A DNA stretch of 64,000 bases from Escherichia phage vB_EcoM_SP1, in the sequence record MT682709.1; one strand, given 5' to 3'. The notes below the pieces were generated by a model, which saw only the letters and a program-made list of their open reading frames with translations, was not told the origin of the DNA and made no database searches. Made by a program: the position numbers and the translations under genes. How positions within the stretch are numbered: position 1 is the first letter of the stretch; each line of letters opens with the position of its first letter. Below, in pieces: positions 343 to 52,967 of this stretch.

Positions 343-615
343 ATGAAAACATTTAAAGAATTTATCAATGAAGCTACTTTTAACGAAAAAGTAAAAATTA
401 GCAAAGCTGTCAAGACTTTGATTGCTGACATCAATTACCTATATGATATTGATTTAACTGACTATGTAACAGTTGGTAACAAACGTAACTTTTTCGTGTT
501 TGACATCTCTGAACTTGACCAGAATCAAATTAACAACATTGAGCGTTTTGCTAATGATAAGGGTCTTCGTCATGAGTCAGCGGGTTATAAAAAATACGCA
601 ATTTATTTAAAATGA
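343..615 (+). CDS. internal-protein-like (capsid-targeting leader MKTFKEFINEA)
   Basis: ATG 343 after GGAGAA RBS (track ORF begins at in-frame TTG 331); N-terminus matches the IP leader consensus. Confidence 0.65.
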   Translation: MKTFKEFINEATFNEKVKISKAVKTLIADINYLYDIDLTDYVTVGNKRNFFVFDISELDQNQINNIERFANDKGLRHESAGYKKYAIYLK

Positions 616-648
616 GTTTACTTTTAAATAGGGTTGTGGTACTATTAT
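616..648 (+). promoter_or_regulatory. T4-type early promoter
   Basis: GTTTAC 616-621, GGTACTATTAT -10 region 638-648. Confidence 0.5.
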
Positions 649-675
649 CTCATCAAAATTAATTAGGAAAATAAA

Positions 676-984
676 ATGAAAACATTTAAAGAATTTATCA
701 ATGAAGCGGCTGCACCAAAGACATTCGTTATTAATACTCAGACGAGTCTTGACGATGAGTATGCAGAGGCAATTCTGAAGTCACTTGCTAAGAACGGCGT
801 TGAAGTAATCGCCTCGGACTTTAAGAAAGGGGCTTCCGAGATGTTTATTTCTATAACTAAAGGATCTAAAGCTAAAATCAAATCATCATTCGGTGTTGCT
901 CGTACCGATCAAATCGACAATCATGACTTTAAACAAACTGGTGTTAAACGGCAGAACACAATTGCATCACGCGGAATAAAATAG
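676..984 (+). CDS. internal-protein-like (leader MKTFKEFINEA), cargo unrelated to 343..615
   Basis: ATG 676 with RBS; first 11 aa identical to the preceding gene, remainder different. Confidence 0.65.
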   Translation: MKTFKEFINEAAAPKTFVINTQTSLDDEYAEAILKSLAKNGVEVIASDFKKGASEMFISITKGSKAKIKSSFGVARTDQIDNHDFKQTGVKRQNTIASRGIK

Positions 985-994
985 TTTATAAACC

Positions 995-1026
995 GTTTAC
1001 TTTTCGATGGGGTAGTGATATTATTA
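995..1026 (+). promoter_or_regulatory. T4-type early promoter
   Basis: GTTTAC 995-1000, GATATTATTA -10 region 1017-1026. Confidence 0.5.
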
Positions 1027-1052
1027 CCCTATCAACTACTGAGGAGAATAAA

Positions 1053-1235
1053 ATGAAACGTTGTGAATTAATTCGAAATGTTGCTATTGCAATTTCTGCT
1101 TCCGCTTTTAGTTTTTCAATGTTTGTTGGATTTATATGCGGATTATTAACTACAGCAGAAAATGTGTTTTCACTTGTAGTAGCATTTTTAATTGGTTTAA
1201 TTGCTATCGTTATGGATAAAATTTCTAAAGGTTAA
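1053..1235 (+). CDS. small hydrophobic membrane protein
   Basis: ATG with GAGGAGAA RBS; 60 aa, mostly hydrophobic. Confidence 0.55.
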   Translation: MKRCELIRNVAIAISASAFSFSMFVGFICGLLTTAENVFSLVVAFLIGLIAIVMDKISKG

Positions 1236-1237
1236 TA

Positions 1238-1525
1238 ATGATTCTTTATGCGAAAGTATCGTCCGTTGAAAATGGATATAAATATGATCAAGATGCGGCT
1301 AAAGCCTTGATTGATGATTATGGCATTTTAACATGTTTTGAAGTTGAAAAGGTTTACATTGACCGTTCATCTTCTCAAGTTAAATTAGTAAAGGAAGACC
1401 GTAAATTTAATACAGTAAATTTTGATTTCTTTATCGAAACAGAAAAAGGTCCTCTTGAATATGATATTTTCAAGAATCCTTTGGGTCTTGAATGCATCGT
1501 AAACATGTATTATCATAAATGGTAA
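1238..1525 (+). CDS. hypothetical protein (95 aa)
   Basis: ORF adjacent to previous stop (TAATG). Confidence 0.5.
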   Translation: MILYAKVSSVENGYKYDQDAAKALIDDYGILTCFEVEKVYIDRSSSQVKLVKEDRKFNTVNFDFFIETEKGPLEYDIFKNPLGLECIVNMYYHKW

Positions 1526-1622
1526 ATATGCTTTAAGAATTATTTGTTATTATTAACTCATATCGCACTGATTAATACCCTCTATCATCAAGGGTTCTTG
1601 CTTGAGAGCCTTTGTTAATAAT

Positions 1623-1695
1623 TGGGAATTAGCCAAGTTGGTAAGGCACTGGATTTTGATTCCAGGATGCAAAGGTTCGAGTCCTTTATTCCCAG
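1623..1695 (+). tRNA. tRNA-Gln (anticodon UUG)
   Basis: Acceptor stem TGGGAAT/ATTCCCA, anticodon loop TTTTGAT, T-arm GGTTCGAGTCC. Confidence 0.85.
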
Positions 1696-1696
1696 C

Positions 1697-1783
1697 GCGA
1701 GAATGGTCAAATTGGTAAAGGCACAGCACTTAAAATGCTGCGGAATGATTTCCTTGTGGGTTCGAGTCCCACTTCTCGCACCA
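1697..1783 (+). tRNA. tRNA-Leu (anticodon UAA), class II, CCA encoded
   Basis: Acceptor GCGAGAA/TTCTCGC, anticodon loop CTTAAAA, long variable arm, CCA 1781-1783. Confidence 0.85.
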
Positions 1784-1788
1784 AATTT

Positions 1789-1862
<74 letters not shown>

Positions 1863-1872
1863 ATTTAATTTA

Positions 1873-1946
1873 CTCCGTGTAGCTCAGTTTGGTAGAGCGC
1901 CTGATTTGGGATCAGGAGGTCCAAGGTTCAAATCCTTGTATGGAGA
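1873..1946 (+). tRNA. tRNA-Pro (anticodon UGG)
   Basis: Acceptor CTCCGTG/TATGGAG with G-U pairs, anticodon loop TTTGGGA, T-arm CAAGGTTCAAATCCTTG. Confidence 0.8.
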
Positions 1947-1948
1947 CT

Positions 1949-2038
1949 GGAGGCGTGGCAGAGTGGTTTAATGCACCGGTCTTGAAAACCGGCAGTCGCT
2001 CCGGCGACTCATAGGTTCAAATCCTATCGCCTCCGCCA
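1949..2038 (+). tRNA. tRNA-Ser (anticodon UGA), class II, CCA encoded
   Basis: Acceptor GGAGGCG/CGCCTCC, anticodon loop CTTGAAA, long variable arm. Confidence 0.85.
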
Positions 2039-2043
2039 GTTTT

Positions 2044-2119
2044 GTTGATTTAGCTCAGTAGGTAGAGCACCTCACTTGTAATGAGGACGTCGGCGGTTCG
2101 ATTCCGTCAATCAGCACCA
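2044..2119 (+). tRNA. tRNA-Thr (anticodon UGU)
   Basis: Acceptor GTTGATT/AATCAGC, anticodon loop CTTGTAA, CCA encoded. Confidence 0.85.
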
Positions 2120-2120
2120 A

Positions 2121-2195
2121 GGCCCTGTAGCTGGAAGGTTCAAGCAAGCGACTCATAATCGCCAGATGGTGGTTCAATTCCACCCAGGGCCACCA
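2121..2195 (+). tRNA. tRNA-Ile (anticodon CAU, lysidine type as in T4) or Met
   Basis: Acceptor GGCCCTG/CAGGGCC, anticodon loop CTCATAA, CCA encoded. Confidence 0.75.
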
Positions 2196-2204
2196 AATTA
2201 ATTT

Positions 2205-2291
2205 GGGGAGTTATCCCGTAGAGGTAGCGGTGTGGACTGTAAATCCATTGTCATTGCGACTCGGGTGGTTCGACTCCATCACTCCCCACCA
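2205..2291 (+). tRNA. tRNA-Tyr (anticodon GUA), class II
   Basis: Acceptor GGGGAGT/ACTCCCC, anticodon loop CTGTAAA, long variable arm; architecture resembles E. coli tRNA-Tyr. Confidence 0.75.
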
Positions 2292-2295
2292 ATTT

Positions 2296-2370
2296 GGATG
2301 TGTAGCTCAATGGCAGAGCGATCGCCTGTTAAGCGATTGGTTATAGGTTCGAATCCTATCACGTCCGCCA
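2296..2370 (+). tRNA. tRNA-Asn (anticodon GUU)
   Basis: Acceptor GGATGTG/CACGTCC, anticodon stem ATCGC/GCGAT with loop CTGTTAA, T-arm ATAGGTTCGAATCCTAT. Confidence 0.75.
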
Positions 2371-2374
2371 AATC

Positions 2375-2450
2375 CGAGGCATAGCTCAGAAGGAAGAGCA
2401 AGGACCTTCTAAGTCCTAGGTCGTAGGTTCGATCCCTACTGCCTCGACCA
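2375..2450 (+). tRNA. tRNA-Arg (anticodon UCU)
   Basis: Acceptor CGAGGCA/TGCCTCG, anticodon stem AGGAC/GTCCT with loop CTTCTAA, CCA encoded. Confidence 0.85.
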
Positions 2451-2466
2451 ATTAAGTGAGGAAAAT

Positions 2467-2817
2467 ATGAAAGGTAATGTTTATTTAGTAGTTCATGATT
2501 TAACATTCTATTTTAATCATAATGACACTGTTATTTCTGAACGTGTAATTAATTTACTTTATCAGCATGCAGATTATGTTTATGTCGAAAACGAATACGG
2601 TCATTGGCAATTTCTCAAAAATCGTTCATTTGGTTTAGATGGTTACGAATACTTTGAACGTAAAGACCTTTTAGATAAAATTCCATTATCTACACAATAT
2701 CAAAATCACAAGTCTTTATATAAATGCCGTCCAATTCGAAATGCTGAATCTGCGTATGAAGTAATTGATTTATGGCGTAAACGTCGTGGACAGGTTGATG
2801 CTTTAAAAGAATACTAA
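2467..2817 (+). CDS. hypothetical protein (116 aa) between tRNA-Arg and the stable-RNA region
   Basis: ATG 2467 after GAGGAAAAT RBS. Confidence 0.55.
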   Translation: MKGNVYLVVHDLTFYFNHNDTVISERVINLLYQHADYVYVENEYGHWQFLKNRSFGLDGYEYFERKDLLDKIPLSTQYQNHKSLYKCRPIRNAESAYEVIDLWRKRRGQVDALKEY

Positions 2818-2821
2818 GAAA

Positions 2822-3123
2822 CCGGGTCGCTACCGGTAAGTCGTCGGACTGATGTTCCCTGGAGTATAGTTTCTCCCACAGTTTTACTGTGTTCTGATTC
2901 TTTACTATCACAGCAGAAACGGCGCACCAAATTATCGATTCGAGGAAATATCTTTGCCGTAAGCCGAGTAGCGTTTTTGACGGAACGTTCGGATATGGTC
3001 GAGATATGGCCTTTTAAAAATATTGAGTAGCGTCAACTACTTAATAACCGGGTTCAAATCCCGGCGTTTCGTACAAACACTTGCCTTAGCAGGTGGAACC
3101 CCGACAAGGTTGCCGCAAGGCTT
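2822..3123 (+). ncRNA. candidate stable small RNA region (T4 species 1/2 RNA-like), contains a tRNA-like T-arm
   Basis: GC-rich, no convincing ORF; CCGGGTTCAAATCCCGG T-arm-like hairpin; possible acceptor pairing CGGAACG/CGTTTCG; ends at a strong terminator. Confidence 0.35.
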
Positions 3124-3151
3124 AGCCCCAGCCGAAAGGTTGGGGCTTTTT
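3124..3151 (+). terminator. rho-independent terminator
   Basis: AGCCCCAGCC-GAAA-GGTTGGGGCT hairpin followed by TTTTT. Confidence 0.65.
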
Positions 3152-3241
3152 AGTTTGAATCACTCGGATAACGCTGTTACGGATAATAACAAAGTAATAA
3201 ATAATTAATAACCAACTGATAGATTATTTCAAGGATTTTAA

Positions 3242-3805
3242 ATGAAAACTTATGCCGAATTTTTAACCGAAGCAGCAAAATTACCATCTGAAGCAGATCT
3301 TACTAAAGTATTCTTTCAATTAGACCCAAAAGACCGTGGCGATTTTCTTAAGTGGAAAGCTAAAGCTATTGAAATGTATAACATCGATAATAGTTCTTTT
3401 ACGATGAGTCAAGAAAATAAATTCAATAAAGCATTTTTCAAAATTTCTAAGAAATTGGCATCTGGCGCTCAGGTTCCTAAATCTGCATTAGCTACTCCTG
3501 AACGTGCACCTGTTAAAATTTCTAAGAATATGTTCGACACTAAAAAATACGTTAATGCTTTGAATAAAGCTCTTGATGCATTGGATGATGCAAAGAAGGC
3601 AGCCCGTGATCTTCAAGACGTGTACACTGATTTTGATCGTAAAACTAAAGGTTCTATTTCAAATAGCGAACGTAATAGTGTAAGTGTTTATTCTGATAGC
3701 CTTGATGTTCTTGGCGATGCGTATACTGAAATTAAAAATCGTATTAACACCGCATCTAAGCTAAAAGCTGCCGCAGAAGCTATAATAACTAAACTGGATA
3801 AATAA
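3242..3805 (+). CDS. internal-protein-like protein with capsid-targeting leader (MKTYAEFLTEAA), 187 aa
   Basis: ATG 3242 with AAGGA RBS; IP-type leader then Lys/Ala-rich helical cargo. Confidence 0.6.
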   Translation: MKTYAEFLTEAAKLPSEADLTKVFFQLDPKDRGDFLKWKAKAIEMYNIDNSSFTMSQENKFNKAFFKISKKLASGAQVPKSALATPERAPVKISKNMFDTKKYVNALNKALDALDDAKKAARDLQDVYTDFDRKTKGSISNSERNSVSVYSDSLDVLGDAYTEIKNRINTASKLKAAAEAIITKLDK

Positions 3806-8488: not shown

Positions 8489-8902
8489 ATGACTCGTATC
8501 AATTTAACACTTGTTTCTGAACTGACCGACCAACATCTTATGGCTGAGTATCGTGAATTACCACGCGTATTTGGTGCAGTCCGTAAACATGTTCAAAACG
8601 GTAAACGTGTAAAGGATTTTAAAATCTCTCCAACATTTATCTTAGGCACAGGTCACGTAACATTCTTTTACGACAAACTCGAATTTTTACGTTTACGTCA
8701 AATCGAGCTAATCGCTGAATGCTTGAAACGTGGTTTCAAAATCAAGGACACGACTGTCCAGGATATTTCCGACATCCCTGTCGAATTTCGTAATAATTAT
8801 GTCCCGTCCGAAGCGTCCATTGCGATAAGTCAAGCTCGCTTAGATGAAAAAATTGCTCAACGCCCTACTTGGTACAAATACTATGGTAAATCAATTTACT
8901 AA
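8489..8902 (+). CDS. denV: endonuclease V (pyrimidine-dimer DNA glycosylase)
   Basis: [31 protein letters not shown]... matches recalled T4 endo V over its full length; ATG 8489 (track begins at TTG 8477). Confidence 0.9.
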
Positions 8903-9232: not shown

Positions 9233-9811
9233 ATGAAAACGTATCAAGAATTTATTGCTGAAGCTTCTGTAGTAAAGGCAAAAGGCATTAATAAGGACGA
9301 GTGGAACTATCGTGGTGGAAACGGCTTTGACCCTAAAACTGCTCCACTTGAACGATATCTAGCCACAAAAGCTTCTGATTTTAAAGCCTTCGCTTGGGAA
9401 GGACTTCGCTGGCGTAACGATCTAAATATTGAAGTTGACGGACTTAAATTTGCTCATATTGAAGATGTTGTTGCTAGTAACTTAGATGCAGCTTTTGTTA
9501 AAGCCGACAGTGATCTTCGTCGCTGGAATTTAAAACTGTTCTCTAAACAAAAAGGCCCGAAGTTTGTGCCTAAAGCCGGTAAATGGGTCATTGATAATAA
9601 ATTAGCTAAGGCTGTCAACTACGCTGGTCTTGAATTCGCCAAGCACAAATCATCATGGAAAGGTCTTGATGCAATGGCTTTCCGTAAAGAATTTGCCGAT
9701 GTTATGGCTAAAGGCGGCTTTAAGGCAGAAATAGATACCTCTAAAGGTACGTTTAAGGACGCTAATGTTCAGTACGCTTATGCCGTTGCTAATGCAGCCC
9801 GTGGTAATTAA
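9233..9811 (+). CDS. ipIII: internal protein III
   Basis: MKTYQEFIAEASVVKAKGINKDEW... near-identical to recalled T4 IPIII. Confidence 0.9.
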   Translation: MKTYQEFIAEASVVKAKGINKDEWNYRGGNGFDPKTAPLERYLATKASDFKAFAWEGLRWRNDLNIEVDGLKFAHIEDVVASNLDAAFVKADSDLRRWNLKLFSKQKGPKFVPKAGKWVIDNKLAKAVNYAGLEFAKHKSSWKGLDAMAFRKEFADVMAKGGFKAEIDTSKGTFKDANVQYAYAVANAARGN

Positions 9812-9852
9812 TAAGGCCTAAGTATAGGCCTATTTACATTTAAAGGAAACAT

Positions 9853-10155
9853 ATGAAAACATATCAAGAATTTATTACTGAAGCGCGAGTGAGTGCAGGT
9901 AAATTAGAAGCCGCTATAAATAAAAAGGCCCATTCATTTCACGATTTGTCCGATAAAGACCGTAAGAAACTTGTAAGCCTTTATATTGACAAAGAGCGTA
10001 TTCTCGCTCTTCCTGGCGCTAATGAAGGTAAACAGGCCAAGCCTTTGAATGCTGTCGAAAAGAAAATTGATAACTTTGCTTCTAAATTCGGTATGTCTAT
10101 GGATGACCTTCAGCAAGCGGCTATCGAAGCAGCTAAAGTAATTAAAGGTAAATAA
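9853..10155 (+). CDS. ipII: internal protein II
   Basis: MKTYQEFITEARVSAGKLEAAINKKAHSFHDL... near-identical to recalled T4 IPII. Confidence 0.9.
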   Translation: MKTYQEFITEARVSAGKLEAAINKKAHSFHDLSDKDRKKLVSLYIDKERILALPGANEGKQAKPLNAVEKKIDNFASKFGMSMDDLQQAAIEAAKVIKGK

Positions 10156-10157
10156 CA

Positions 10158-10187
10158 GTTTACTTTCTCCTAAAATTGTGATAGTAT
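10158..10187 (+). promoter_or_regulatory. T4-type early promoter
   Basis: GTTTAC 10158-10163, TAGTAT -10. Confidence 0.5.
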
Positions 10188-10212
10188 ATTCATAATTACT
10201 TAGAGAGGTAAA

Positions 10213-10276
10213 ATGACTCGATGAAAAAATTTTAATGAAGCCACACTGGTATAAGTATTAAGGCAAAAATATTTAC
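10213..10276 (+). pseudogene. denV deletion remnant (start codon fused to diverged 3' end)
   Basis: ATGACTCG (denV codons 1-3) joined to ATGAAAAAATT...ACTGGTATAAGTATTAAGGCAAAAATATTTAC, alignable to the 3' end of intact denV at 8848-8899; reads M-T-R-stop. Confidence 0.6.
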
Positions 10277-10427
10277 ATTCAAATAACATGGGAACAACCT
10301 GGACCTCATGATTCTATGAGGGATTCCCGCCAACCTGTAATAAGGTCGAGCCCAAGTGCGGTAATGGGTAAATACAGAAATGGACAATTCATGTGCCATG
10401 GAATGGCCCAAATTTAGAGAGAATAAA

Positions 10428-10967
10428 ATGAGAACATTTTTAACTGGACCTTATCTATCCCTGATGAATGCTTTTACACACCATTCTGATGCTAGAGTAG
10501 AAGAAATTTGTAAAAACGATTATATCCCACCATTTGAAGACTTACTCAAACAGTATTGCACACTTCGACTAGATGGTGGACGTCAATCCGGTAAATCAAC
10601 TGCAGTAACTAATTTTGCCGCTAATTGGTTGTATGACGGTGGAACAGTTATTGTTCTTTCTAATACTTCAGCTTACGCTAAAATTTCTGCGGGCCACATT
10701 AAAAAAGAGTTTTCTCGTTATTCTAGCGATGATATTCGATTCCGCTTATTTACCGATTCTGTCCGTAGTTTTATCGGTAATAAAGGAAGCAAGTTCAGAG
10801 GTTTATCGCTTTCGCGGATTTTGTATATAATCGATGAGCCTGTTAAATCTCCTGATATGGATAAAATTTACGATATTCATATTGAAACTGTGCACCACTG
10901 TTGCAATAGTAAATGCTGCATTGGTGGTATTACTCGTCCACAGTTTTTCATAATCGGAATGCAATGA
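10428..10967 (+). CDS. P-loop NTPase (Walker A GGRQSGKST, Walker B ILYIIDE), 179 aa
   Basis: ATG 10428 after GAGAGAATAAA leader (track begins upstream at 10380); Walker motifs. Confidence 0.55.
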   Translation: MRTFLTGPYLSLMNAFTHHSDARVEEICKNDYIPPFEDLLKQYCTLRLDGGRQSGKSTAVTNFAANWLYDGGTVIVLSNTSAYAKISAGHIKKEFSRYSSDDIRFRLFTDSVRSFIGNKGSKFRGLSLSRILYIIDEPVKSPDMDKIYDIHIETVHHCCNSKCCIGGITRPQFFIIGMQ

Positions 10968-11293
10968 TGACAGACACGCAACTTTTCGAATATCTTTATT
11001 TTTCGCCAAAAACTATTAAAAATAAATTGGTGAATCATTTTGAAATTTTGGCAAATAACAACGCCTTGAGCGAATTTTATCCTAAGCAATACAAATTACA
11101 AAAAGGCGTATTCAAAGGATGCAGAGTTTTGTGCACTGCTCCTAATGCAAGATTAATGAATAAAATTCCATATTTTACCATGGAATTTATTGATGGGCCT
11201 TTTAAAGGACTAATCACCCAAAGTTTAATGGCATATGATTCTGAGCCATTTTTAATTAAAGAACAATCTTGGATAAATTTATTTTCTAATTGA
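10964..11293 (+). CDS. hypothetical protein (109 aa)
   Basis: ATG 10964 overlapping previous stop (ATGATGA). Confidence 0.45.
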
Positions 11294-11301
11294 GAGGTTA
11301 T

Positions 11302-11664
11302 ATGAAAGCATATCAAATTCTTGAAGGCACGCATAAAGGTACTATTTATTTTGAAGATGGTATTCAAGCACGAATTATTGTCTCTAAAACTTTTAAAGAG
11401 GACTCTTTTGTAGACCCAGAAATTTTCTATGGTTTGCATGCCCGTGAAATTGAAATTGAAACACAACCTACAGTTAAAATTGAGGGTGGTCAACACCTGA
11501 ACGTAAACGTTCTGCGTCGTGAAACTCTGGAAGATGCAGTTAAGCATCCGGAAAAATATCCGCAGCTGACCATCCGTGTATCCGGTTATGCAGTTCGCTT
11601 TAACTCTCTGACTCCGGAACAGCAGCGCGACGTTATCGCTCGTACCTTTACTGAGAGTTTGTAA
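11302..11664 (+). CDS. autonomous glycyl-radical cofactor (GrcA/YfiD-like)
   Basis: C-terminal 60 aa ([60 protein letters not shown]) identical to recalled E. coli GrcA; ATG 11302 after GAGAGG RBS. Confidence 0.85.
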
Positions 11665-11885
11665 TGGCAAAGATAATTATTGAAGGTTCTGAAGATGTGC
11701 TAAATGCTTTCGCCGAATGGTTTAGTAATTCAGGCGAACAGCAATTTAATGAAGCGTGGAACATGGGTGATATTAATGGAATTTATCCTACGACAGAAAT
11801 TTCTGTTCAAGGATATGGAATTCATGAGCCTATTCGTTTAGTTGAATATGATTTGGGAACAGGTGAGGAAGTAAAATATGATTGA
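11664..11885 (+). CDS. hypothetical protein (73 aa)
   Basis: ATG overlapping previous stop. Confidence 0.5.
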   Translation: MAKIIIEGSEDVLNAFAEWFSNSGEQQFNEAWNMGDINGIYPTTEISVQGYGIHEPIRLVEYDLGTGEEVKYD

Positions 11886-12144
11886 AGACATTAAAGGCTA
11901 TAAGCCACATACTGACGATAAAATCAGTAAAGTGAATGCTATCAAAGATGCTGAAGTTCGTTTAGGACTTATCTTTGATGCTTTATATGATGAATTCTGG
12001 GAAGCGCTAGATAATTGTGAAGACTGCGAATTCGCGAAGAATTATGCTGAAAGTCTCGATCAGTTAACTATTGCTAAAACGAAACTCAAAGAAGCCAGTA
12101 TGTGGGCTTGTCGTGCTGTGTTCCAACCAGAGGAAAAATATTAA
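11878..12144 (+). CDS. hypothetical acidic protein (88 aa)
   Basis: ORF overlapping neighbours in operon style. Confidence 0.5.
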
Positions 12145-12422
12145 TGGCCCAATTAAGCGCAGGGTTTGGTTATGAGTATTATACTGCCCCTCGTCGTGTA
12201 TCTGTTGCTCCTAAGAAAATTCAAAGTCTTGATGATTTCCAGGAAGTAATTCGTAACGCTTTCCAGGACTATGCGCGTTATCTTAAAGAAGATTCACAGG
12301 ACTGTCTCGAAGAAGATGAAATTGCTTACTATACGCAGCGTCTTGAACAGCTTAAAAACCTACATGAGGTCCGTGCAGAAGTTTCAAAGTCTATGAATAA
12401 ATTGATTAGATTTAAAGAATAA
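12144..12422 (+). CDS. hypothetical protein (92 aa)
   Basis: ATG 12144 (TAATG overlap) after GAGGAAAAATA. Confidence 0.5.
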
Positions 12423-12424
12423 CT

Positions 12425-12454
12425 GTTTACTTTTCCTCTTGACTGTGGTATAAT
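12425..12454 (+). promoter_or_regulatory. T4-type early promoter
   Basis: GTTTAC 12425-12430, TGGTATAAT 12446-12454. Confidence 0.55.
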
Positions 12455-12481
12455 TTTTCTATCAGTTAAGAGGAGAATAAC

Positions 12482-12943
12482 ATGACTATCAACACAGAAG
12501 TTTTTATCCGTCGAAATAAGCTCCGTCGTCACTTTGAGTCGGAGTTTCGTCAAATTAACAATGAGATTCGTGAGGCATCAAAAGCAGCAGGGGTCTCATC
12601 GTTTCATCTAAAATATTCTCAACATCTTCTTGATCGTGCAATTCAACGGGAGATTGATGAGACATATGTTTTTGAATTATTCCATAAAATAAAAGACCAT
12701 GTTTTAGAAGTTAATGAATTCCTAAGTATGCCTCCGCGTCCTGACATTAATGAGGATTTTATTGATGGGGTTGAATATCGTCCTGGGCGTTTAGAAATCA
12801 CCGATGGAAATCTTTGGCTTGGATTTACAGTTTGTAAACCTAACGAGAAGTTCAAAGACCCGTCACTTCAGTGCAGGATGGCAATTATCAACAGTCGTCG
12901 TTTACCGGGAAAGGCTTCTAAAGCAGTAATTAAAACTCAATGA
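12482..12943 (+). CDS. regB: RegB endoribonuclease
   Basis: 153 aa; MTINTEVFIRRNKLRRHFESEFRQ... matches recalled T4 RegB; AGGAGAATAA RBS. Confidence 0.8.
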   Translation: MTINTEVFIRRNKLRRHFESEFRQINNEIREASKAAGVSSFHLKYSQHLLDRAIQREIDETYVFELFHKIKDHVLEVNEFLSMPPRPDINEDFIDGVEYRPGRLEITDGNLWLGFTVCKPNEKFKDPSLQCRMAIINSRRLPGKASKAVIKTQ

Positions 12944-12950
12944 GGTAAGC

Positions 12951-13496
12951 ATGAGAAAAGCACTACTCGCTGGTCTATTGGCCATTTCAATGATGGCACA
13001 TAGCTCCGAGCATACTTTCAGTAATGTCCAACTCGATAACATGCGTTACGCGTATCAATTCGGGGAACAATTTTCTAAGGATGGAAAATATAAAACACAC
13101 AAAAATATCCACAAGAGCGGATTAGGTCATATAATGGCTGCTATTTTATGGCAAGAAAGCTCTGCCGGAGTTAATTTAAAATCTAAACCAAAGCATCATG
13201 CCTATGGAATGTTCCAAAATTATTTGCCGACAATGCGAGCAAGAGTTAAGGAACTTGGTTATAATATGACCGATGCTGAAATAAAAAGAATGTTGAATAA
13301 ACGGTCCAATTCAGCTTCCTGGGCGTACATTGAACTTTCTTATTGGTTAAATATACATAAGGGTGATATAAGAAAGGCAATATCCTCTTATAATTCGGGA
13401 TGGAATGTTAAAGCAGGTTCTAAATATGCTTCTGAAGTCCTAGAAAAGGCTAACTACCTTAAAAGTAATAAACTACTGGAAATAGTAAATGACTAA
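12951..13496 (+). CDS. secreted SLT-domain lytic transglycosylase-like protein
   Basis: Signal peptide MRKALLAGLLAISMMAHS; motifs WQESS, GMFQ, SYNSGW resemble SLT family 1. Confidence 0.5.
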   Translation: MRKALLAGLLAISMMAHSSEHTFSNVQLDNMRYAYQFGEQFSKDGKYKTHKNIHKSGLGHIMAAILWQESSAGVNLKSKPKHHAYGMFQNYLPTMRARVKELGYNMTDAEIKRMLNKRSNSASWAYIELSYWLNIHKGDIRKAISSYNSGWNVKAGSKYASEVLEKANYLKSNKLLEIVND

Positions 13497-28919: not shown

Positions 28920-29393
28920 ATGTTATTGACTGGCAAATTATATAAAGAAGAAAAACAGAAATTTTATGATGCACAAAACGGTAAATGCTTAATTTGCCAA
29001 CGAGAACTAAATCCTGATGTTCAAGCTAATCACCTAGATCATGACCATGAATTAAATGGACCAAAAGCAGGAAAGGTACGTGGATTGCTTTGTAATCTCT
29101 GTAATGCCGCAGAAGGTCAAATGAAGCATAAATTTAATCGTTCTGGCTTAAAGGGACAAGGTGTTGATTATCTTGAATGGTTAGAAAATTTACTTACTTA
29201 TTTAAAATCCGATTACACCCAAAATAATATTCACCCTAACTTTGTTGGAGATAAATCAAAGGAATTTTCTCGTTTAGGAAAAGAGGAAATGATGGCCGAG
29301 ATGCTTCAAAGAGGATTTGAATATAATGAATCTGACACCAAAACACAATTAATAGCTTCATTTAAGAAGCAGCTTAGAAAGAGTTTAAAATGA
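28920..29393 (+). CDS. 49: endonuclease VII (Holliday-junction resolvase)
   Basis: 157 aa; MLLTGKLYKEEKQKFYDAQNGKCLICQRELN... matches recalled T4 gp49. Confidence 0.9.
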   Translation: MLLTGKLYKEEKQKFYDAQNGKCLICQRELNPDVQANHLDHDHELNGPKAGKVRGLLCNLCNAAEGQMKHKFNRSGLKGQGVDYLEWLENLLTYLKSDYTQNNIHPNFVGDKSKEFSRLGKEEMMAEMLQRGFEYNESDTKTQLIASFKKQLRKSLK

Positions 29394-29927
29394 CAATTGA
29401 AAAAGAAATTGAAGGATTGATTCATAAAACTAATAAAGACCTTTTAAACGAGAATGCTAATAAAGATTCTCGTGTTTTTCCAACTCAACGGGACCTTATG
29501 GCTGGTATTGTGTCTAAACACATTGCCAAAAATATGGTCCCGTCTTTTATTATGAAAGCGCATGAAAGCGGAATTATCCATTTCCACGATATTGATTATT
29601 CCCCTGCTCTTCCATTTACTAATTGTTGTTTAGTAGATTTAAAAGGAATGCTTGAGAACGGATTTAAGCTAGGTAATGCACAGATTGAAACTCCTAAATC
29701 AATTGGCGTTGCTACTGCAATTATGGCACAAATTACTGCACAGGTTGCTTCTCACCAATACGGCGGAACGACTTTTGCGAATGTAGATAAAGTACTTTCT
29801 CCTTATGTTAAACGCACCTATGCAAAACATATTGAGGATGCAGAAAAATGGCAAATCGCTGATGCGTTGAATTATGCTCAATCTAAAACAGAAAAAGACG
29901 TATACGATGCATTCCAGGCGTATGAGT
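29390..29927 (+). CDS. nrdD: anaerobic ribonucleotide reductase NrdD, exon 1
   Basis: ATG overlaps gene 49 stop; exon ends at T29927 where exon ATGAGT can pair with intron GCTCAT (P1 with U.G at the splice site); in-frame stop follows in the intron. Confidence 0.8.
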
Positions 29928-30138
29928 TAATTTAATTCAGGCTCATGTAAAACCGGTCTAAACGGGGAACCTCTCTAGTAGACAATCCCGTGCTAAATGT
30001 TCTTTTGAACTAAATGCCTAACGACTAACCGTGATGAATGTAGCGGTGTAGAATAGAAGCTAATGCTATTCGAAACGGCCGGCATCGAAAGATGAAGATA
30101 TAGTCTAATCTGCATGGCGACATGCAGCAGTCATCTTG

Positions 30139-30175: not shown

Positions 30176-30946
30176 ATGAAATGGATAAAAAGACGTTGTA
30201 CTAAAATAAAAGATAAAGACGCATTTACATACTTAGTTAAGTTTTCTAATGGCGACATTTATATCGGTTATAAAAAATTTAGAACAATTAAAAACAAGCC
30301 CACAAACTGGAAAACTTACACAACGTCATCTAAGTATATAAATGAACGCTTAAAAACTGATACACCTACTAAATGGATAATTTTAAAAACATTTGATAGT
30401 TATAAAGATGCATTAAAACATGAAGAAGAGGTCATACGTAAATATTTTTATAGCAAAAAATGTTTAAATAAATCCATAGGCGGTAAAAAGTTTTATAAGC
30501 ATCCGGATACTGAAGAACATATTCAAAAATTAAGAGATGCTCATAAGGGTAAAGTGTTATCCGAATCTCATAAAAACAATATAAAATCTTCTGTAGCTGA
30601 ATATTATGCTAAAAACGGAAGATCTAAGGAACATGTGCAAAATAATATCAATAGTCGAAAAAGTAAAAAACAAGTATCGATAAAGCTTAAAAATAAAACT
30701 TTTAGAAGTTTTAAAAAAGCAGCGGAATATTTAAATTGCACTGAAAGTGAAGTCGAAACTCATCCTCTTGTTTTGAGTATTAAGACTACTATTCATAAAG
30801 TTCCTGAATATGTGGTTGTTGACGGTATTAAGTATACGTCTTATATAGAAGCAGCTAAAGCGCTAAATTTTCATCCTAGCACTATAAAAGAACGTTGCAT
30901 ATCTATGGACTATCCAAATTTTGTTGTTTCATATAAACGGGCATGA
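30176..30946 (+). CDS. I-TevII: GIY-YIG homing endonuclease I-TevII
   Basis: 256 aa; GIY-YIG motif YLVKFSNGDIYIGYK; encoded within the nrdD intron. Confidence 0.85.
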   Translation: MKWIKRRCTKIKDKDAFTYLVKFSNGDIYIGYKKFRTIKNKPTNWKTYTTSSKYINERLKTDTPTKWIILKTFDSYKDALKHEEEVIRKYFYSKKCLNKSIGGKKFYKHPDTEEHIQKLRDAHKGKVLSESHKNNIKSSVAEYYAKNGRSKEHVQNNINSRKSKKQVSIKLKNKTFRSFKKAAEYLNCTESEVETHPLVLSIKTTIHKVPEYVVVDGIKYTSYIEAAKALNFHPSTIKERCISMDYPNFVVSYKRA

Positions 30947-30960
30947 ATTTGCGACTCATG

Positions 30961-32252
30961 CTGAATATAATGATGAAGTAAATACACTTTTCAGCTCTAA
31001 CGGACAAACGCCTTTTGTAACAATTACATTTGGTACGGGAACTGACTGGACTGAACGAATGATTCAGAAAGCAATTCTGAAAAATCGCATTAAAGGTCTT
31101 GGTCGTGACGGGATAACTCCTATTTTTCCTAAGCTTGTTATGTTCGTTGAAGAAGGTGTTAATCTTTATAAAGACGATCCGAACTATGATATTAAGCAGC
31201 TTGCTTTAGAGTGCGCAAGCAAAAGAATGTATCCTGACATCATTTCTGCTAAGAACAATAAAGCTATCACCGGTTCATCTATTCCTGTTTCTCCAATGGG
31301 TTGCCGTAGTTTCTTGAGCGTATGGAAAGATTCGACTGGTAATGAAATTCTTGACGGTCGTAATAATCTTGGCGTTGTAACACTGAATCTTCCTCGCATC
31401 GCATTAGATTCTTATATTGGAACACAGTTCAATGAACAGAAATTTACTGAATTATTCAATGAGCGAATGGATTTATGTTTTGAAGCATTGATGTGTAGAA
31501 TTAGTTCCTTAAAGGGAGTTAAAGCTACTGTTGCTCCTATTCTTTACCAAGAAGGTGCATTCGGGGTTCGTCTTAAACCTGATGACGATATAATTGAGTT
31601 ATTTAAAAACGGTAGAAGTTCAGTGTCCTTAGGATACATTGGTATTCACGAATTGAATATTCTTGTCGGTCGTGATATTGGACGAGAAATTTTAACTAAA
31701 ATGAATGCTCATCTTAAACAGTGGACTGAAAGAACCGGATTTGCTTTTAGTTTATATTCTACTCCTGCTGAAAACCTTTGTTATCGCTTCTGTAAACTCG
31801 ATACAGAAAAATATGGAAGCGTAAAAGATGTTACCGATAAAGGCTGGTACACTAACAGTTTCCATGTTTCAGTAGAAGAAAATATTACTCCGTTTGAAAA
31901 GATTTCTCGTGAAGCGCCATATCATTTCATTGCGACAGGTGGTCACATTTCTTATGTTGAACTTCCTGATATGAAAAATAACTTAAAAGGTCTTGAGGCC
32001 GTATGGGATTATGCTGCACAACATTTAGATTATTTTGGTGTTAATATGCCAGTAGATAAATGTTTTACATGCGGAAGTACCCATGAAATGACTCCTACTG
32101 AAAACGGATTTGTTTGTTCTATTTGTGGAGAAACTGATCCTAAAAAGATGAATACCATAAGAAGAACATGTGGTTATTTGGGAAATCCGAACGAACGCGG
32201 ATTTAATCTCGGTAAAAATAAAGAAATCATGCATAGGGTTAAGCATCAATGA
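30961..32252 (+). CDS. nrdD: anaerobic ribonucleotide reductase NrdD, exon 2
   Basis: Glycyl-radical motif RRTCGYLG near the C-terminus; frame continuous with exon 1 after splicing (about 609 aa). Confidence 0.8.
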
Positions 32253-32719
32253 ATTATGATAGATTTTATCCTTGTGATTTTGTGAATGGCCCTGGTTGCA
32301 GGGTCGTTCTTTTCGTTACAGGTTGTTTGCATAAATGTGAAGGGTGTTATAATAAATCAACATGGAATGCTAGAAATGGTATTCCATTCACTGGTGAAAC
32401 ACTAGAGCAATTAATTGAATGTTTGAATAATGATTATATAGAAGGATTGACTATAACTGGAGGTGACCCTCTCTATCCTGATAACCGAGATGTTATTCAT
32501 TGCATTGTTCAAACAGTAAAAAATCTTTATCCCAATAAAAGCATTTGGTTGTGGACAGGATATAAATTTGAAGATATTAAACAACTAGAAATGCTTAAAT
32601 ATGTTGATGTTATTATTGATGGGAAGTATGAGAAAAATCTTCCGACTAAAAAGCTGTGGCGAGGATCAGATAATCAGCGACTTTGGTCAAATACCGATGG
32701 GGTGTGGAAACATGATTAA
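32249..32719 (+). CDS. nrdG: anaerobic RNR activating enzyme NrdG (radical SAM)
   Basis: CxxxCxxC motif (GCLHKCEGCYNK); ATG overlaps nrdD stop. Confidence 0.85.
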   Translation: MNYDRFYPCDFVNGPGCRVVLFVTGCLHKCEGCYNKSTWNARNGIPFTGETLEQLIECLNNDYIEGLTITGGDPLYPDNRDVIHCIVQTVKNLYPNKSIWLWTGYKFEDIKQLEMLKYVDVIIDGKYEKNLPTKKLWRGSDNQRLWSNTDGVWKHD

Positions 32720-39600: not shown

Positions 39601-41279
39601 AGAATTTTAAACTAAACCGAGTTAGATATCAAAATATAATGTCAGTAGGTGGAAATCCTATTGACATTCAATTAGATAAGGTTCAAAAAACTCTTATTAC
39701 TGGACGAAATGGTGGTGGTAAGTCTACTATGTTAGAAGCCATCACATTTGGGCTTTTTGGCAAGCCATTTCGTGATGTAAAGAAAGGCCAATTAATAAAC
39801 AGCACAAATAAGAAAGAGCTTTTAGTTGAACTGTGGATGGAATATGATGAGAAAAAGTACTATATCAAAAGAGGACAAAAACCAAATGTTTTCGAAATCA
39901 CCGTTAACGGTACACGTCTTAATGAATCTGCCAGCAGTAAAGATTTCCAAGCAGAATTTGAACAGCTTATCGGAATGTCATACGCCAGTTTCAAACAGAT
40001 CGTCGTACTCGGCACGGCTGGATATACCCCTTTCATGGGCCTATCCACTCCTGCAAGAAGAAAACTCGTCGAAGACCTGCTCGAGGTAGGAACATTAGCT
40101 GAAATGGATAAGCTTAATAAAGCACTAATACGTGAATTAAATTCACAAAACCAAGTGCTTGATGTTAAAAAAGATAGTATTATCCAACAAATTAAAATAT
40201 ATAACGATAATGTTGAACGACAGAAAAAATTGTCTGGTGACAACCTTACTCGTCTACAGAATATGTATGACGATTTGGCAAAGGAAGCTAGAACGCTAAA
40301 ATCGGAAATAGAAGAAGCTAATGAAAGATTAGTTAATATTGTTTTAGATGAAGACCCGACTGATGCATTTAATAAAATCGGTCAAGAAGCAGTTTTGATT
40401 AAATCAAAAATTGACTCGTATAATAAAGTCATTAATATGTATCACGAAGGTGGATTATGTCCAACCTGTTTGTCACAATTAAGTTCCGGTGATAAAGTTG
40501 TTTCTAAAATTAAAGATAAAGTTTCTGAATGCACGCATTCGTTTGAACAGCTTTCAACACACCGTGATAATTTAAAAGTTCTTGTTGATGAATACCGAGA
40601 TAATATTAAAACCCAGCAGACGTTGGCAAATGATATTCGCAATAAAAAGCAATCTCTAATCACGACGGTAGATAAAGCTAAAAAAGTTAAAGCGGCTATA
40701 GAAAAAGCATCATCCGAGTTTATTGACCACGCTGATGAAATAGCACTGCTTCAAGAAGAACTTGATAAAATTGTTAAGACAAAAACTAATTTAGTAATGG
40801 AAAAATACCATAGAGGAATTTTGACTGATATGCTCAAAGATTCTGGTATTAAAGGTGCTATTATTAAAAAGTACATTCCATTATTTAATAAGCAGATTAA
40901 CCATTATCTTAAAATAATGGAAGCGGATTATGTGTTTACATTAGATGAAGAATTTAATGAGACAATTAAATCCCGTGGTCGTGAAGATTTTAGTTATGCT
41001 TCATTTAGCCAAGGTGAAAAAGCACGAATTGATATTGCTCTTTTATTTACTTGGCGTGATATTGCTGAAAAAGTTTCAGGTGTTAAAATAAACACACTAA
41101 TTCTTGATGAAGTTTTTGATTCAGCAACTGATGTTGAAGGCGTAAAAGCTATTTCAACTATTTTAGATAGTTTAAAAAATACTAATGTTTTTGTTATTTC
41201 ACATAGAGACCATGACCCACAAGCATATGGTCAGCATCTTCAAATGAAGAAAGTTGGTCGATTTACTGTAATGGTTTAA
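39597..41279 (+). CDS. 46: recombination endonuclease subunit gp46 (Rad50/SbcC-like ATPase)
   Basis: 560 aa; Walker A GRNGGGKST, coiled-coil region with CPTC zinc hook, signature SQGE, Walker B LILDE; GTG start. Confidence 0.9.
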   Translation: MKNFKLNRVRYQNIMSVGGNPIDIQLDKVQKTLITGRNGGGKSTMLEAITFGLFGKPFRDVKKGQLINSTNKKELLVELWMEYDEKKYYIKRGQKPNVFEITVNGTRLNESASSKDFQAEFEQLIGMSYASFKQIVVLGTAGYTPFMGLSTPARRKLVEDLLEVGTLAEMDKLNKALIRELNSQNQVLDVKKDSIIQQIKIYNDNVERQKKLSGDNLTRLQNMYDDLAKEARTLKSEIEEANERLVNIVLDEDPTDAFNKIGQEAVLIKSKIDSYNKVINMYHEGGLCPTCLSQLSSGDKVVSKIKDKVSECTHSFEQLSTHRDNLKVLVDEYRDNIKTQQTLANDIRNKKQSLITTVDKAKKVKAAIEKASSEFIDHADEIALLQEELDKIVKTKTNLVMEKYHRGILTDMLKDSGIKGAIIKKYIPLFNKQINHYLKIMEADYVFTLDEEFNETIKSRGREDFSYASFSQGEKARIDIALLFTWRDIAEKVSGVKINTLILDEVFDSATDVEGVKAISTILDSLKNTNVFVISHRDHDPQAYGQHLQMKKVGRFTVMV

Positions 41280-51539: not shown

Positions 51540-52967
51540 GTGGTAGAAATTATTCTTTCTCATCTCATATTTGATCAAGCTTATTTTTCAAAAGTTTGGC
51601 CATATATGGATTCAGAATATTTTGAAAGTGGTCCAGCTAAAAATACATTCAAATTAATTAAATCTCATGTTAATGAGTACCATAGCGTTCCATCTATTAA
51701 TGCGTTAAATGTTGCATTAGAAAATAGTTCATTTACTGAAACAGAATATTCTGGTGTAAAAACACTTATTTCAAAACTAACCGATTCTCCGGAAGACCAT
51801 AGCTGGTTAGTAAAAGAAACAGAAAAATATGTTCAGCAAAGGGCGATGTTTAACGCCACATCTAAAATAATTGAAATTCAAACCAATGCTGAGCTTCCTC
51901 CAGAAAAACGAAATAAGAAAATGCCAGATGTAGGTGCTATTCCTGACATCATGCGCCAAGCATTATCAATTTCATTTGATAGCTACGTTGGCCATGATTG
52001 GATGGATGACTACGAAGCACGTTGGCTATCTTATATGAATAAAGCTCGTAAGGTTCCATTTAGACTCAAAATTCTAAATAAAATTACTAAAGGCGGAGCT
52101 GAAACTGGAACACTGAACGTTTTAATGGCTGGTGTTAACGTTGGTAAGTCATTAGGTCTGTGTTCATTGGCAGCAGATTATTTGCAGCTCGGACATAATG
52201 TTCTTTACATTTCCATGGAAATGGCAGAAGAAGTCTGTGCTAAACGTATTGACGCTAATATGCTCGATGTTTCTCTTGATGACATTGATGATGGGCATAT
52301 TTCTTACGCTGAATATAAAGGAAAAATGGAAAAATGGCGTGAGAAATCTACTCTCGGCCGTTTAATCGTTAAACAGTATCCTACTGGTGGAGCAGACGCT
52401 AATACATTTCGATCGCTTTTAAACGAATTGAAGCTCAAGAAGAATTTTGTTCCAACGATCATTATTGTCGACTATCTAGGTATTTGTAAATCTTGCCGCA
52501 TCAGAGTTTACTCAGAAAATAGTTACACAACTGTTAAAGCTATCGCAGAGGAATTGCGTGCTCTGGCTGTTGAAACCGAAACTGTTCTTTGGACTGCAGC
52601 ACAGGTTGGTAAGCAAGCTTGGGATTCTTCTGATGTTAACATGAGCGATATTGCAGAATCTGCCGGTCTTCCAGCAACAGCCGATTTTATGCTTGCGGTC
52701 ATTGAAACCGAGGAGTTAGCAGCTGCTGAACAACAACTCATTAAGCAAATCAAATCACGATATGGTGATAAGAATAAATGGAATAAGTTTTTGATGGGTG
52801 TTCAAAAAGGAAATCAGAAATGGGTAGAAATTGAACAAGATTCTACTCCAACTGAAGTTAACGAAGTAGCAGGTTCGCAACAGATACAAGCTGAGCAGAA
52901 TCGCTATCAAAGAAATGAATCTACTCGAGCCCAGTTAGATGCTTTAGCAAACGAATTAAAATTTTAG
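51540..52967 (+). CDS. 41: replicative DNA helicase gp41 (DnaB-like)
   Basis: 475 aa; GTG start; Walker A AGVNVGKS; matches recalled T4 gp41. Confidence 0.9.
   Translation: MVEIILSHLIFDQAYFSKVWPYMDSEYFESGPAKNTFKLIKSHVNEYHSVPSINALNVALENSSFTETEYSGVKTLISKLTDSPEDHSWLVKETEKYVQQRAMFNATSKIIEIQTNAELPPEKRNKKMPDVGAIPDIMRQALSISFDSYVGHDWMDDYEARWLSYMNKARKVPFRLKILNKITKGGAETGTLNVLMAGVNVGKSLGLCSLAADYLQLGHNVLYISMEMAEEVCAKRIDANMLDVSLDDIDDGHISYAEYKGKMEKWREKSTLGRLIVKQYPTGGADANTFRSLLNELKLKKNFVPTIIIVDYLGICKSCRIRVYSENSYTTVKAIAEELRALAVETETVLWTAAQVGKQAWDSSDVNMSDIAESAGLPATADFMLAVIETEELAAAEQQLIKQIKSRYGDKNKWNKFLMGVQKGNQKWVEIEQDSTPTEVNEVAGSQQIQAEQNRYQRNESTRAQLDALANELKF

Follow-up and report, generated by a model that had tools for sequence, protein, structure and literature searches.

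Host-identical DNA in the glycyl-radical half of the T4-type gene vs.6, and polymorphism shared with Escherichia coli grcA

Only two proteins have been validated as 'spare parts' for pyruvate formate-lyase (PFL): YfiD, also called GrcA, of Escherichia coli and Y06I of phage T4, both of which are activated by PFL-AE and rescue PFL (PMC8683613; PMC13450708). The restoration of oxygen-cleaved PFL by T4 Y06I is credited to Wagner et al. 2001 in PMC8683613. The N-terminal region of YfiD is disordered and helps radical installation (PMC13450708), and a 2006 comparison of T4-like genomes merely mentions the Gly_radical domain (PMC1524935). In other words, both the vs.6 gene, which encodes Y06I, and its spare-part function are already known, and for T4 they are textbook material. 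In the papers that we found on YfiD, Y06I, vs.6 and grcA in T4-like phages, the nucleotide mosaic reported here is undescribed, although an earlier mention is possible.

Mosaicism of host and phage sequence within a single metabolic gene is familiar from cyanophage psbA, which has undergone intragenic host–phage recombination. Like psbA, vs.6 is a phage copy of a host metabolic gene that carries host-exchanged segments. Unlike psbA, it resides in a T-even phage, which is strictly lytic, has modified DNA and breaks down the chromosome of its host, and the exchange is confined to a single short tract that is identical to living host alleles and shows polymorphism common to the phage and host populations. 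We consider it very likely that the 3' half of a T4-type vs.6 was overwritten from E. coli grcA, that this half has been re-copied in different phage lineages, and that the phage benefits from the result.

The DNA that we analyzed, referred to below as the window, is a 64,000-nt (64-kb) stretch of Escherichia phage vB_EcoM_SP1 (MT682709.1), and it is a Tequatrovirus (T4-like) segment: the 1 kb around vs.6 is 97.5–98.6% identical to many T4-like phages, and positions 491–3363 of T4T are colinear with window positions 10290–13164 at 95.3% identity. The open reading frame at 11302–11664 (plus strand, as are all of the vs.6 features given below) is T4 gene vs.6, encoding the 120-amino-acid autonomous glycyl-radical cofactor Y06I, as identified by the Pfam Gly_radical domain, by PDB entry 6OWR and by synteny with T4. 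It is an orthologue of the T4T gene, with 98.1% nucleotide identity, and the gene order vs.8-vs.7-vs.6-vs.5-vs.4-vs.3-regB is common to T4 and the window, with vs.7 and vs.5 flanking vs.6 in the denV–regB cluster; the suggestion of an earlier, sequence-only reading of this DNA that the gene matches a GrcA-type spare part known from T4 is thereby borne out. The proteins of T4 and the window are identical at 119 of 120 residues, the sole difference being at residue 54 (T54 against P54). The vs.6 ATG at 11302 is preceded at a distance of 4 nt by a Shine-Dalgarno element, GAGAGG (11292–11297, read directly from the sequence), which overlaps the TGA stop of vs.7 (11291–11293), and the vs.6 TAA (11662–11664) overlaps the start of vs.5 as TAATG, with the vs.5 ATG at 11664–11666. 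Rfam gave no match within 10000–12600, and promoter-like sites are no commoner than in shuffled sequence; we claim neither an RNA element nor a dedicated promoter.

Two features of the neighborhood deserve mention in their own right. Two genes downstream of vs.6, vs.4 (11878–12144) matches the Acb2/Tad1 hairpin domain (E = 1e-19), the domain of an anti-CBASS sponge protein. Upstream, denV lies 5' of the internal-protein genes in the window (8489–8899, 9233–10155, 10217–10276), whereas the order in T4T is ipII-denV-vs.8; the internal-protein genes at 9233–9811 and 9853–10155 share the N-terminus MKTYQEFI, and directly after ipII there are 60 nt left over from the 3' end of denV, with 70% identity over 20 amino acids. 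The remnant and the altered order together suggest that the end of denV was duplicated in a rearrangement.

The vs.6 product closely resembles E. coli GrcA/YfiD in being a small stand-alone protein with an RVSGY glycine, and in the phage the C-terminal 60 residues and 170 nt of coding DNA are identical to those of the host. The Pfam Gly_radical model (PF01228) matches residues 60–101 with E = 2.2e-18 (67 bits; cut-off, 22), a phmmer comparison with E. coli YfiD (PDB 6OWR) gives E = 5e-42, and residues 58–120 align to residues 697–759 of PflB in the PFL structure 1H16 (E = 5e-26). From the 6OWR and 1H16 alignments, the predicted radical glycine is Gly95 of the RVSGY motif (R92-V-S-G95-Y96; codon GGT at 11584–11586), corresponding to Gly102 of YfiD and Gly734 of PflB. 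Residues 61–120 are all identical to residues 68–127 of E. coli GrcA, both by BLASTP and by phmmer against 6OWR, just as the sequence-only reading had noted. On the other hand, the phage protein is 7 residues shorter than GrcA, and its N-terminal half is AT-rich at the DNA level and strongly diverged. Consistent with this mixture, the NCBIfam GrcA equivalog TIGR04365 is still the best family for vs.6, with an alignment that spans residues 20–120, but the score of 154.6 bits, compared with 234 for E. coli GrcA itself, falls below the cut-off of 170 because the N-terminal half has diverged. The protein is not a full-length glycyl radical enzyme: the ~760-amino-acid ten-stranded catalytic barrel is absent, as is the Cys418/Cys419 pair, and what vs.6 encodes is the counterpart of the C-terminal glycyl-radical domain of PflB/TdcE, the part that the phage protein replaces. 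Labels for vs.6 in public phage records vary among 'pyruvate formate-lyase', 'acetyltransferase', '2-ketobutyrate formate-lyase' and 'hypothetical protein'; 'pyruvate formate-lyase' and 'acetyltransferase' are misnomers.

At the nucleotide level, the resemblance to the host gene is not spread over vs.6 but is concentrated in one patch. In a pairwise alignment, positions 11485–11654, which encode the glycyl-radical domain, are identical to grcA of E. coli FDAARGOS_497 at 170 of 170 nt. Outside this patch, identity to E. coli grcA drops to 90/183 (49%) in the 5' half of the gene and to 37–39% in the flanks (19/52 upstream, 19/49 downstream). Over the last 185 nt of vs.6, the only mismatches to the E. 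coli allele are one at 11484 and three synonymous ones in the final three codons, and a blastn search of 5,426 complete E. coli genomes with 11480–11664 finds grcA in all of them, with a best identity of 97.8%. The right edge of the patch (11655–11664) is formed by these last three codons (11653–11661) and the TAA that follows; the window reads GAG AGT TTG where the host reads GAA AGC CTG, with the synonymous differences at 11655, 11658 and 11659. Outgroup phage genera have GAG AGT CTA at this place, and therefore the GAG and AGT of the window represent the outgroup state, and its TTG a variant derived in Tequatrovirus. The phage-type edge codons are absent from grcA in all 5,426 E. coli genomes. 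Identity above the level given by protein conservation, sharp boundaries and a shift in composition together mark the patch as a host-derived recombined segment.

The compositional shift is pronounced. The 60 codons at the 3' end of vs.6 have a GC content of 0.50 and a GC3 of 0.45; the corresponding values for the 5' half are 0.32 and 0.17. The GC3 of E. coli grcA is even, at 0.43 in both halves. When 57-codon windows were slid along the 98 open reading frames of the 64 kb (n = 12,001; mean GC 0.351, standard deviation 0.042), only 2 reached the GC of the patch, 0.503, and all those with at least five CTG plus CCG codons lie in 11392–11491; the patch has 8 such codons, against a mean of 0.61. 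Among its codons are five CTG, three CCG, four CGT and two CGC, whereas elsewhere in the window 9% of leucine codons are CTG and 13% of proline codons are CCG. The patch is the only host-type, CTG/CCG-rich stretch across the 64 kb, and the sequence-only reading, which had noted GC-rich host-type codons at about 11480–11664 and had proposed a sliding-window check, was right on this point. Elsewhere, a GC content of at least 0.47 in 57-codon windows occurs only at 39915–40100, in the gene for the Rad50-like protein gp46, and at 52530–52730, in a 475-amino-acid open reading frame (51540–52967); neither place has the host-type CTG/CCG codon signature.

Could such identity have arisen without any transfer of DNA, by purifying selection on the radical domain and convergence on optimal E. 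coli codons? The 60-residue domain is indeed extremely conserved in bacteria and phages, but wherever else the same 60 residues are encoded, nucleotide identity to E. coli is far lower: 83.9–92.2% in other bacterial genera and 83.3–83.9% in Pseudotevenvirus phages (EC-F2, L105–L107). Additionally, grcA mixes synonymous codons (GTA/GTT, GCA/GCT, ACT/ACC, TCC/TCT, CAA/CAG), and the phage patch reproduces each of these mixed choices; nor is its density of CTG and CCG matched in other genes of the window. These controls refute convergence, to which we assign practically no weight. Because identity over 170 nt is complete, against the 83–92% that protein conservation yields, the 3' half is host DNA; the alignment with grcA that the sequence-only reading had put forward as a check has thus come out in favor of host origin. 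As a donor, pflB was considered and rejected, having only ~79% nucleotide identity to the patch, and with the controls at no more than 92%, the donor was an Escherichia grcA. A different concern is that host reads or a chimeric assembly entered the phage record, since host DNA is present in phage lysates and assembly software could be led astray by a segment common to both genomes. However, the Sanger-era T4 entry X04567 (ORF 63.1, 120 amino acids) has the same patch in frame and is 97.8% identical to the window over the whole gene, the patch is found in over 500 phage records that were sequenced independently, and its edges are fixed and phage-specific, with haplotypes that do not track the stated propagation host; an artefact is hardly credible. 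Identity by itself gives no direction, and one might equally propose that E. coli acquired the 3' half of grcA from T-even phages. Here it is the host gene that is uniform (GC3 0.43/0.43) and the phage gene that is mosaic (0.17/0.45); identity to the 3' half of E. coli grcA declines in a graded series, from 98.3% in another Escherichia through 92.2% in Citrobacter to ~84% in distant genera, with no discontinuity that would betray an import; and no E. coli genome has the phage-type edge codons. For these reasons, we conclude that the direction was from host to phage and regard the reverse as exceedingly improbable.

Host DNA in the patch does not mean that the whole gene was taken from the host. 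The 5' half of vs.6 (11302–11484, residues 1–61) is of phage type, an AT-rich and diverged homologue of the GrcA N-terminal region with 49% nucleotide identity to grcA and ~35% amino-acid identity over residues 22–60 (BLASTP). In related phage genera (e.g. L100–L104), the 3' half is likewise AT-rich and diverged, with a GC3 of 0.22–0.30; it differs at several amino acids, and its identity to host genes nowhere exceeds 80%. The patch therefore sits inside an older, AT-rich phage homologue of grcA, and we describe it as a gene-conversion patch rather than a fresh gene capture. The sequence-only reading had spoken of recent capture of host sequence, and this is supported with some refinement: the captured sequence lies within an older homologue, and it is not peculiar to this phage, being present in more than 500 phage records. 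'Recent' is to be understood relative to the divergence of the phage genera, within living E. coli diversity, and probably as repeated events rather than one.

Host-identical patches were also sought in other phages by comparison with 85 host genes, a set without K. pneumoniae, and there were none in Klebsiella Jiaodavirus, Slopekvirus, Enterobacter Pseudotevenvirus, Krischvirus, T5-like or Aeromonas phages, for which the best identities are 72–90%. The T5-like phages (Tequintavirus) have a grcA-like gene with a 3' half that is not host-like (74–75% identity). In the Klebsiella Jiaodavirus vs.6 genes (L084:601–963, L085:601–963), composition breaks in the same way, GC3 rising from 0.23 (5' half) to 0.60 (3' half), and there are residues of Klebsiella/Enterobacter type (LLDAVEH); the best match in this host set is 89.6%.

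The more than 500 records with the patch belong to Tequatrovirus and Mosigvirus, and 16 T4-like and RB69-like sequences were inspected in full. Among these 16, the 5' half of vs.6 separates the two genera cleanly, with 17–23 differences in 183 nt between genera and at most 10 within them, whereas the patch shows 1–5 differences in 170 nt, whichever the genus. Between Tequatrovirus and Mosigvirus, the patch is 98–100% identical and the flanks are 70–90% identical; for the window and RB69, for example, identity is 70–85% in the flanking genes, ~90% in the 5' half of vs.6 and 98–100% in the patch. Some of the differences within the patch are shared with the host. At three synonymous sites within 11493–11520 (11493 A/G, 11505 A/T and 11520 T/C, where the window has A, A and T), the same alleles occur in E. 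coli grcA and in T4-like phages. T4T is identical to the E. coli B/BL21 allele over 178 nt, and Salmonella phage Lv5cm to the K-12 allele over 175 nt; RB69 has the K-12 allele with one private V-to-I change. The window differs from T4 in having GTA at 11503–11505, as does E. coli FDAARGOS_497, where T4 has GTT, as does E. coli B, and its identity to the host ends 3–5 nt earlier on the right than that of T4. Separately, Lv5cm (MZ150757, L092:601–1126) has 163 bp, comprising the ribosome-binding site and the 5' part of vs.6, duplicated in tandem, which yields a truncated 61-amino-acid first copy followed by an intact vs.6; the junction is at an ATTGA microhomology, and the duplication is either real or an assembly artefact.

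Haplotypes were scored as exact 42-nt matches at 11505 and 11520, and the counts of phage records that follow are inflated by duplicates and close relatives. Haplotype TT is present in 419 phage records and 3,416 of the 5,426 E. coli genomes, TC in 72 and 1,267, and AT in 31 and 635, respectively; AC, with 6 phage records, has no counterpart among the 5,426 genomes. T4-like phages thus have all three major E. coli grcA haplotypes, ranked by frequency as in the host, and Tequatrovirus and Mosigvirus each have more than one. The polymorphism is shared by the patch and E. coli grcA. Since AC is absent from these E. coli genomes, mutation or phage–phage recombination also shapes the patch; its source would be phage–phage recombination, partial tracts or mutation, and exchange between Tequatrovirus and Mosigvirus could be a partial cause of the similarity of their patches. 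Did conversion perhaps take place during laboratory passage? The link between haplotype and recorded laboratory host is inconsistent, with agreement for T4 (B) and moha (K-12) and disagreement for T2, Pu-Krd-SF4 and RB7, and this proposal is unsupported; because there is no consistent match, conversion appears too rare to reset the haplotype at each change of host. An exact-pattern scan of IMG/VR returned only 4 contigs, all already among the sequences examined, and so supplied no independent uncultivated sample.

The spread of host haplotypes among the phages is what repeated conversion from different host alleles would produce. The main competing account is a single capture by the ancestor that Tequatrovirus and Mosigvirus have in common, with vertical inheritance thereafter, parallel single-nucleotide changes and low divergence maintained by constraint. 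Several observations are in keeping with it: patch boundaries are nearly equal in all 16 phages, with the left edge at 11479/11480 in every one; TT dominates in the phages, at 419 of about 528 records; and private phage mutations lie inside the patch (at 11574, 11652 and others). We did set aside variable tract ends as a sign of separate events, because most of the tract-end differences could be single mutations. What a single capture struggles with is the low divergence itself. The protein is invariant, which leaves only synonymous sites free to change, and yet RB69 and the window differ synonymously at 2 of 57 patch codons against 10 of 61 codons in the 5' half, with flanks that have diverged by 15–30%. 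Each of three phages has a different E. coli allele, without a mismatch over 170–178 nt, and the variable sites 11505 (an A/T transversion) and 11520 (T/C) are the two commonest E. coli polymorphisms, a coincidence of site and allele that we roughly estimate to have a chance probability of ~1e-4. The evidence for recurrence consists of two or three shared sites, the 16 fully inspected sequences and the inflated record counts; among the sites, the CGT/CGC polymorphism is a transition that could recur by mutation. On balance, a single capture seems to us unlikely, and we judge it probable, if with appreciable reservation, that strictly lytic T-even phages are engaged in ongoing, repeated conversion of vs.6 from E. 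coli, such that the radical-domain half evolves in concert with grcA, shares host polymorphisms and records the lineage with which the phage last recombined.

How might repeated conversion come about? We propose that homologous recombination with the E. coli chromosome, homeologous at first, replaced the 3' half of an old phage homologue of grcA that was AT-rich. The homologous recombination system of T4 is very active, T4 fragments host DNA during infection, and recombination between T4 and unmodified plasmids through short homology is routine in T4 genetics; the gene for the recombination nuclease gp46, which is Rad50-like, is within the window. The conversion tract would be limited to the radical domain as the only part similar enough for pairing: on the left, it would end at the point where the proteins diverge (QPTVKI versus KPEVRV), and on the right, at the stop codon, past which there is no homology. 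Host sequence would be tolerated or even favored in this domain because the radical domain needs an exact fit both to host PflA, which has to recognize it, and to host PflB, into which it has to dock. Once in place, 170–178 bp of perfect identity would ease further exchange, and the patch could therefore be re-copied from different E. coli alleles across phage lineages.

The benefit to the phage that we envision draws on the biochemistry of T4 Y06I and E. coli YfiD. The host activase PflA would place a radical on Gly95, and the C-terminal 60-residue domain would then substitute for the oxygen-cut glycyl-radical domain of host PFL, bringing back the production of formate and acetyl-CoA, perhaps at a time when the host can no longer make new GrcA. 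Under microaerobic conditions, the phage would keep fermentative energy and would be supplied with formate as a reductant for its own anaerobic ribonucleotide reductase (RNR); the window encodes the oxygen-sensitive anaerobic enzyme NrdD and its activase NrdG. Formate is the reductant of the class III RNRs characterized so far (PMC4493059), and PFL kept alive after exposure to oxygen would therefore be expected to sustain both energy and dNTP supply. As an aside on these genes, nrdD is split into 29390–29935 and 30921–32252 by an intron with a GIY-YIG/NUMOD homing-endonuclease-like open reading frame (30176–30946), nrdD exon 2 has a Gly_radical domain of its own, and nrdG, encoding the radical-SAM activase, follows nrdD at 32249–32719.

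Whether host patching extends beyond E. coli and its T-even phages is a natural question. Large phage contigs (up to ~150 kb), at least some of them from human-associated (HMP) metagenomes, contain a group of grcA-like genes, and in one of them, on an oral-metagenome contig (L114:1525–1580; IMG/VR 3300008607_000007), a 56-nt run is identical to grcA of Haemophilus parainfluenzae; its siblings (L112–L117, L124) have 6–12 synonymous differences in the same stretch. This run may be a second case of host patching or may instead reflect chimerism in metagenome assembly. In the Pasteurellaceae-type phage contigs as a group, 3' diversity is 0.115 and 5' diversity 0.082, where a much larger 3' excess had been expected. 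Together with the host-like 3' composition in Klebsiella phages, the Haemophilus run hints at patching in other phage–host pairs.

The sharing of grcA haplotypes, their spread across two phage genera and the contrast between a patch that is 98–100% identical and flanks that are 70–90% identical appear to be undescribed. We infer from the cross-genus haplotypes and the patch/flank contrast, which point to it, that homologous recombination from host to phage has been recurrent. That polymorphism is common to 5,426 E. coli genomes and over 500 records of phages suggests exchange in nature, and 170–178 bp of perfect identity between phage and chromosome constitute a natural recombination substrate, here in phages whose own DNA is modified and which destroy that of the host.

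There are practical sides to these observations as well. The exact match of the patch will surface in screens for host prediction and for contamination. The vs.6 gene also offers a simple, selectable-free locus at which the rate of phage–host exchange can be measured. For the phage, borrowing host sequence is one way to keep an auxiliary protein compatible with PflA and PflB. If a gene of a lytic phage does evolve in concert with the homologous gene of its host, this would be a moderately interesting addition to the biology of T-even phages, and the idea is directly testable.
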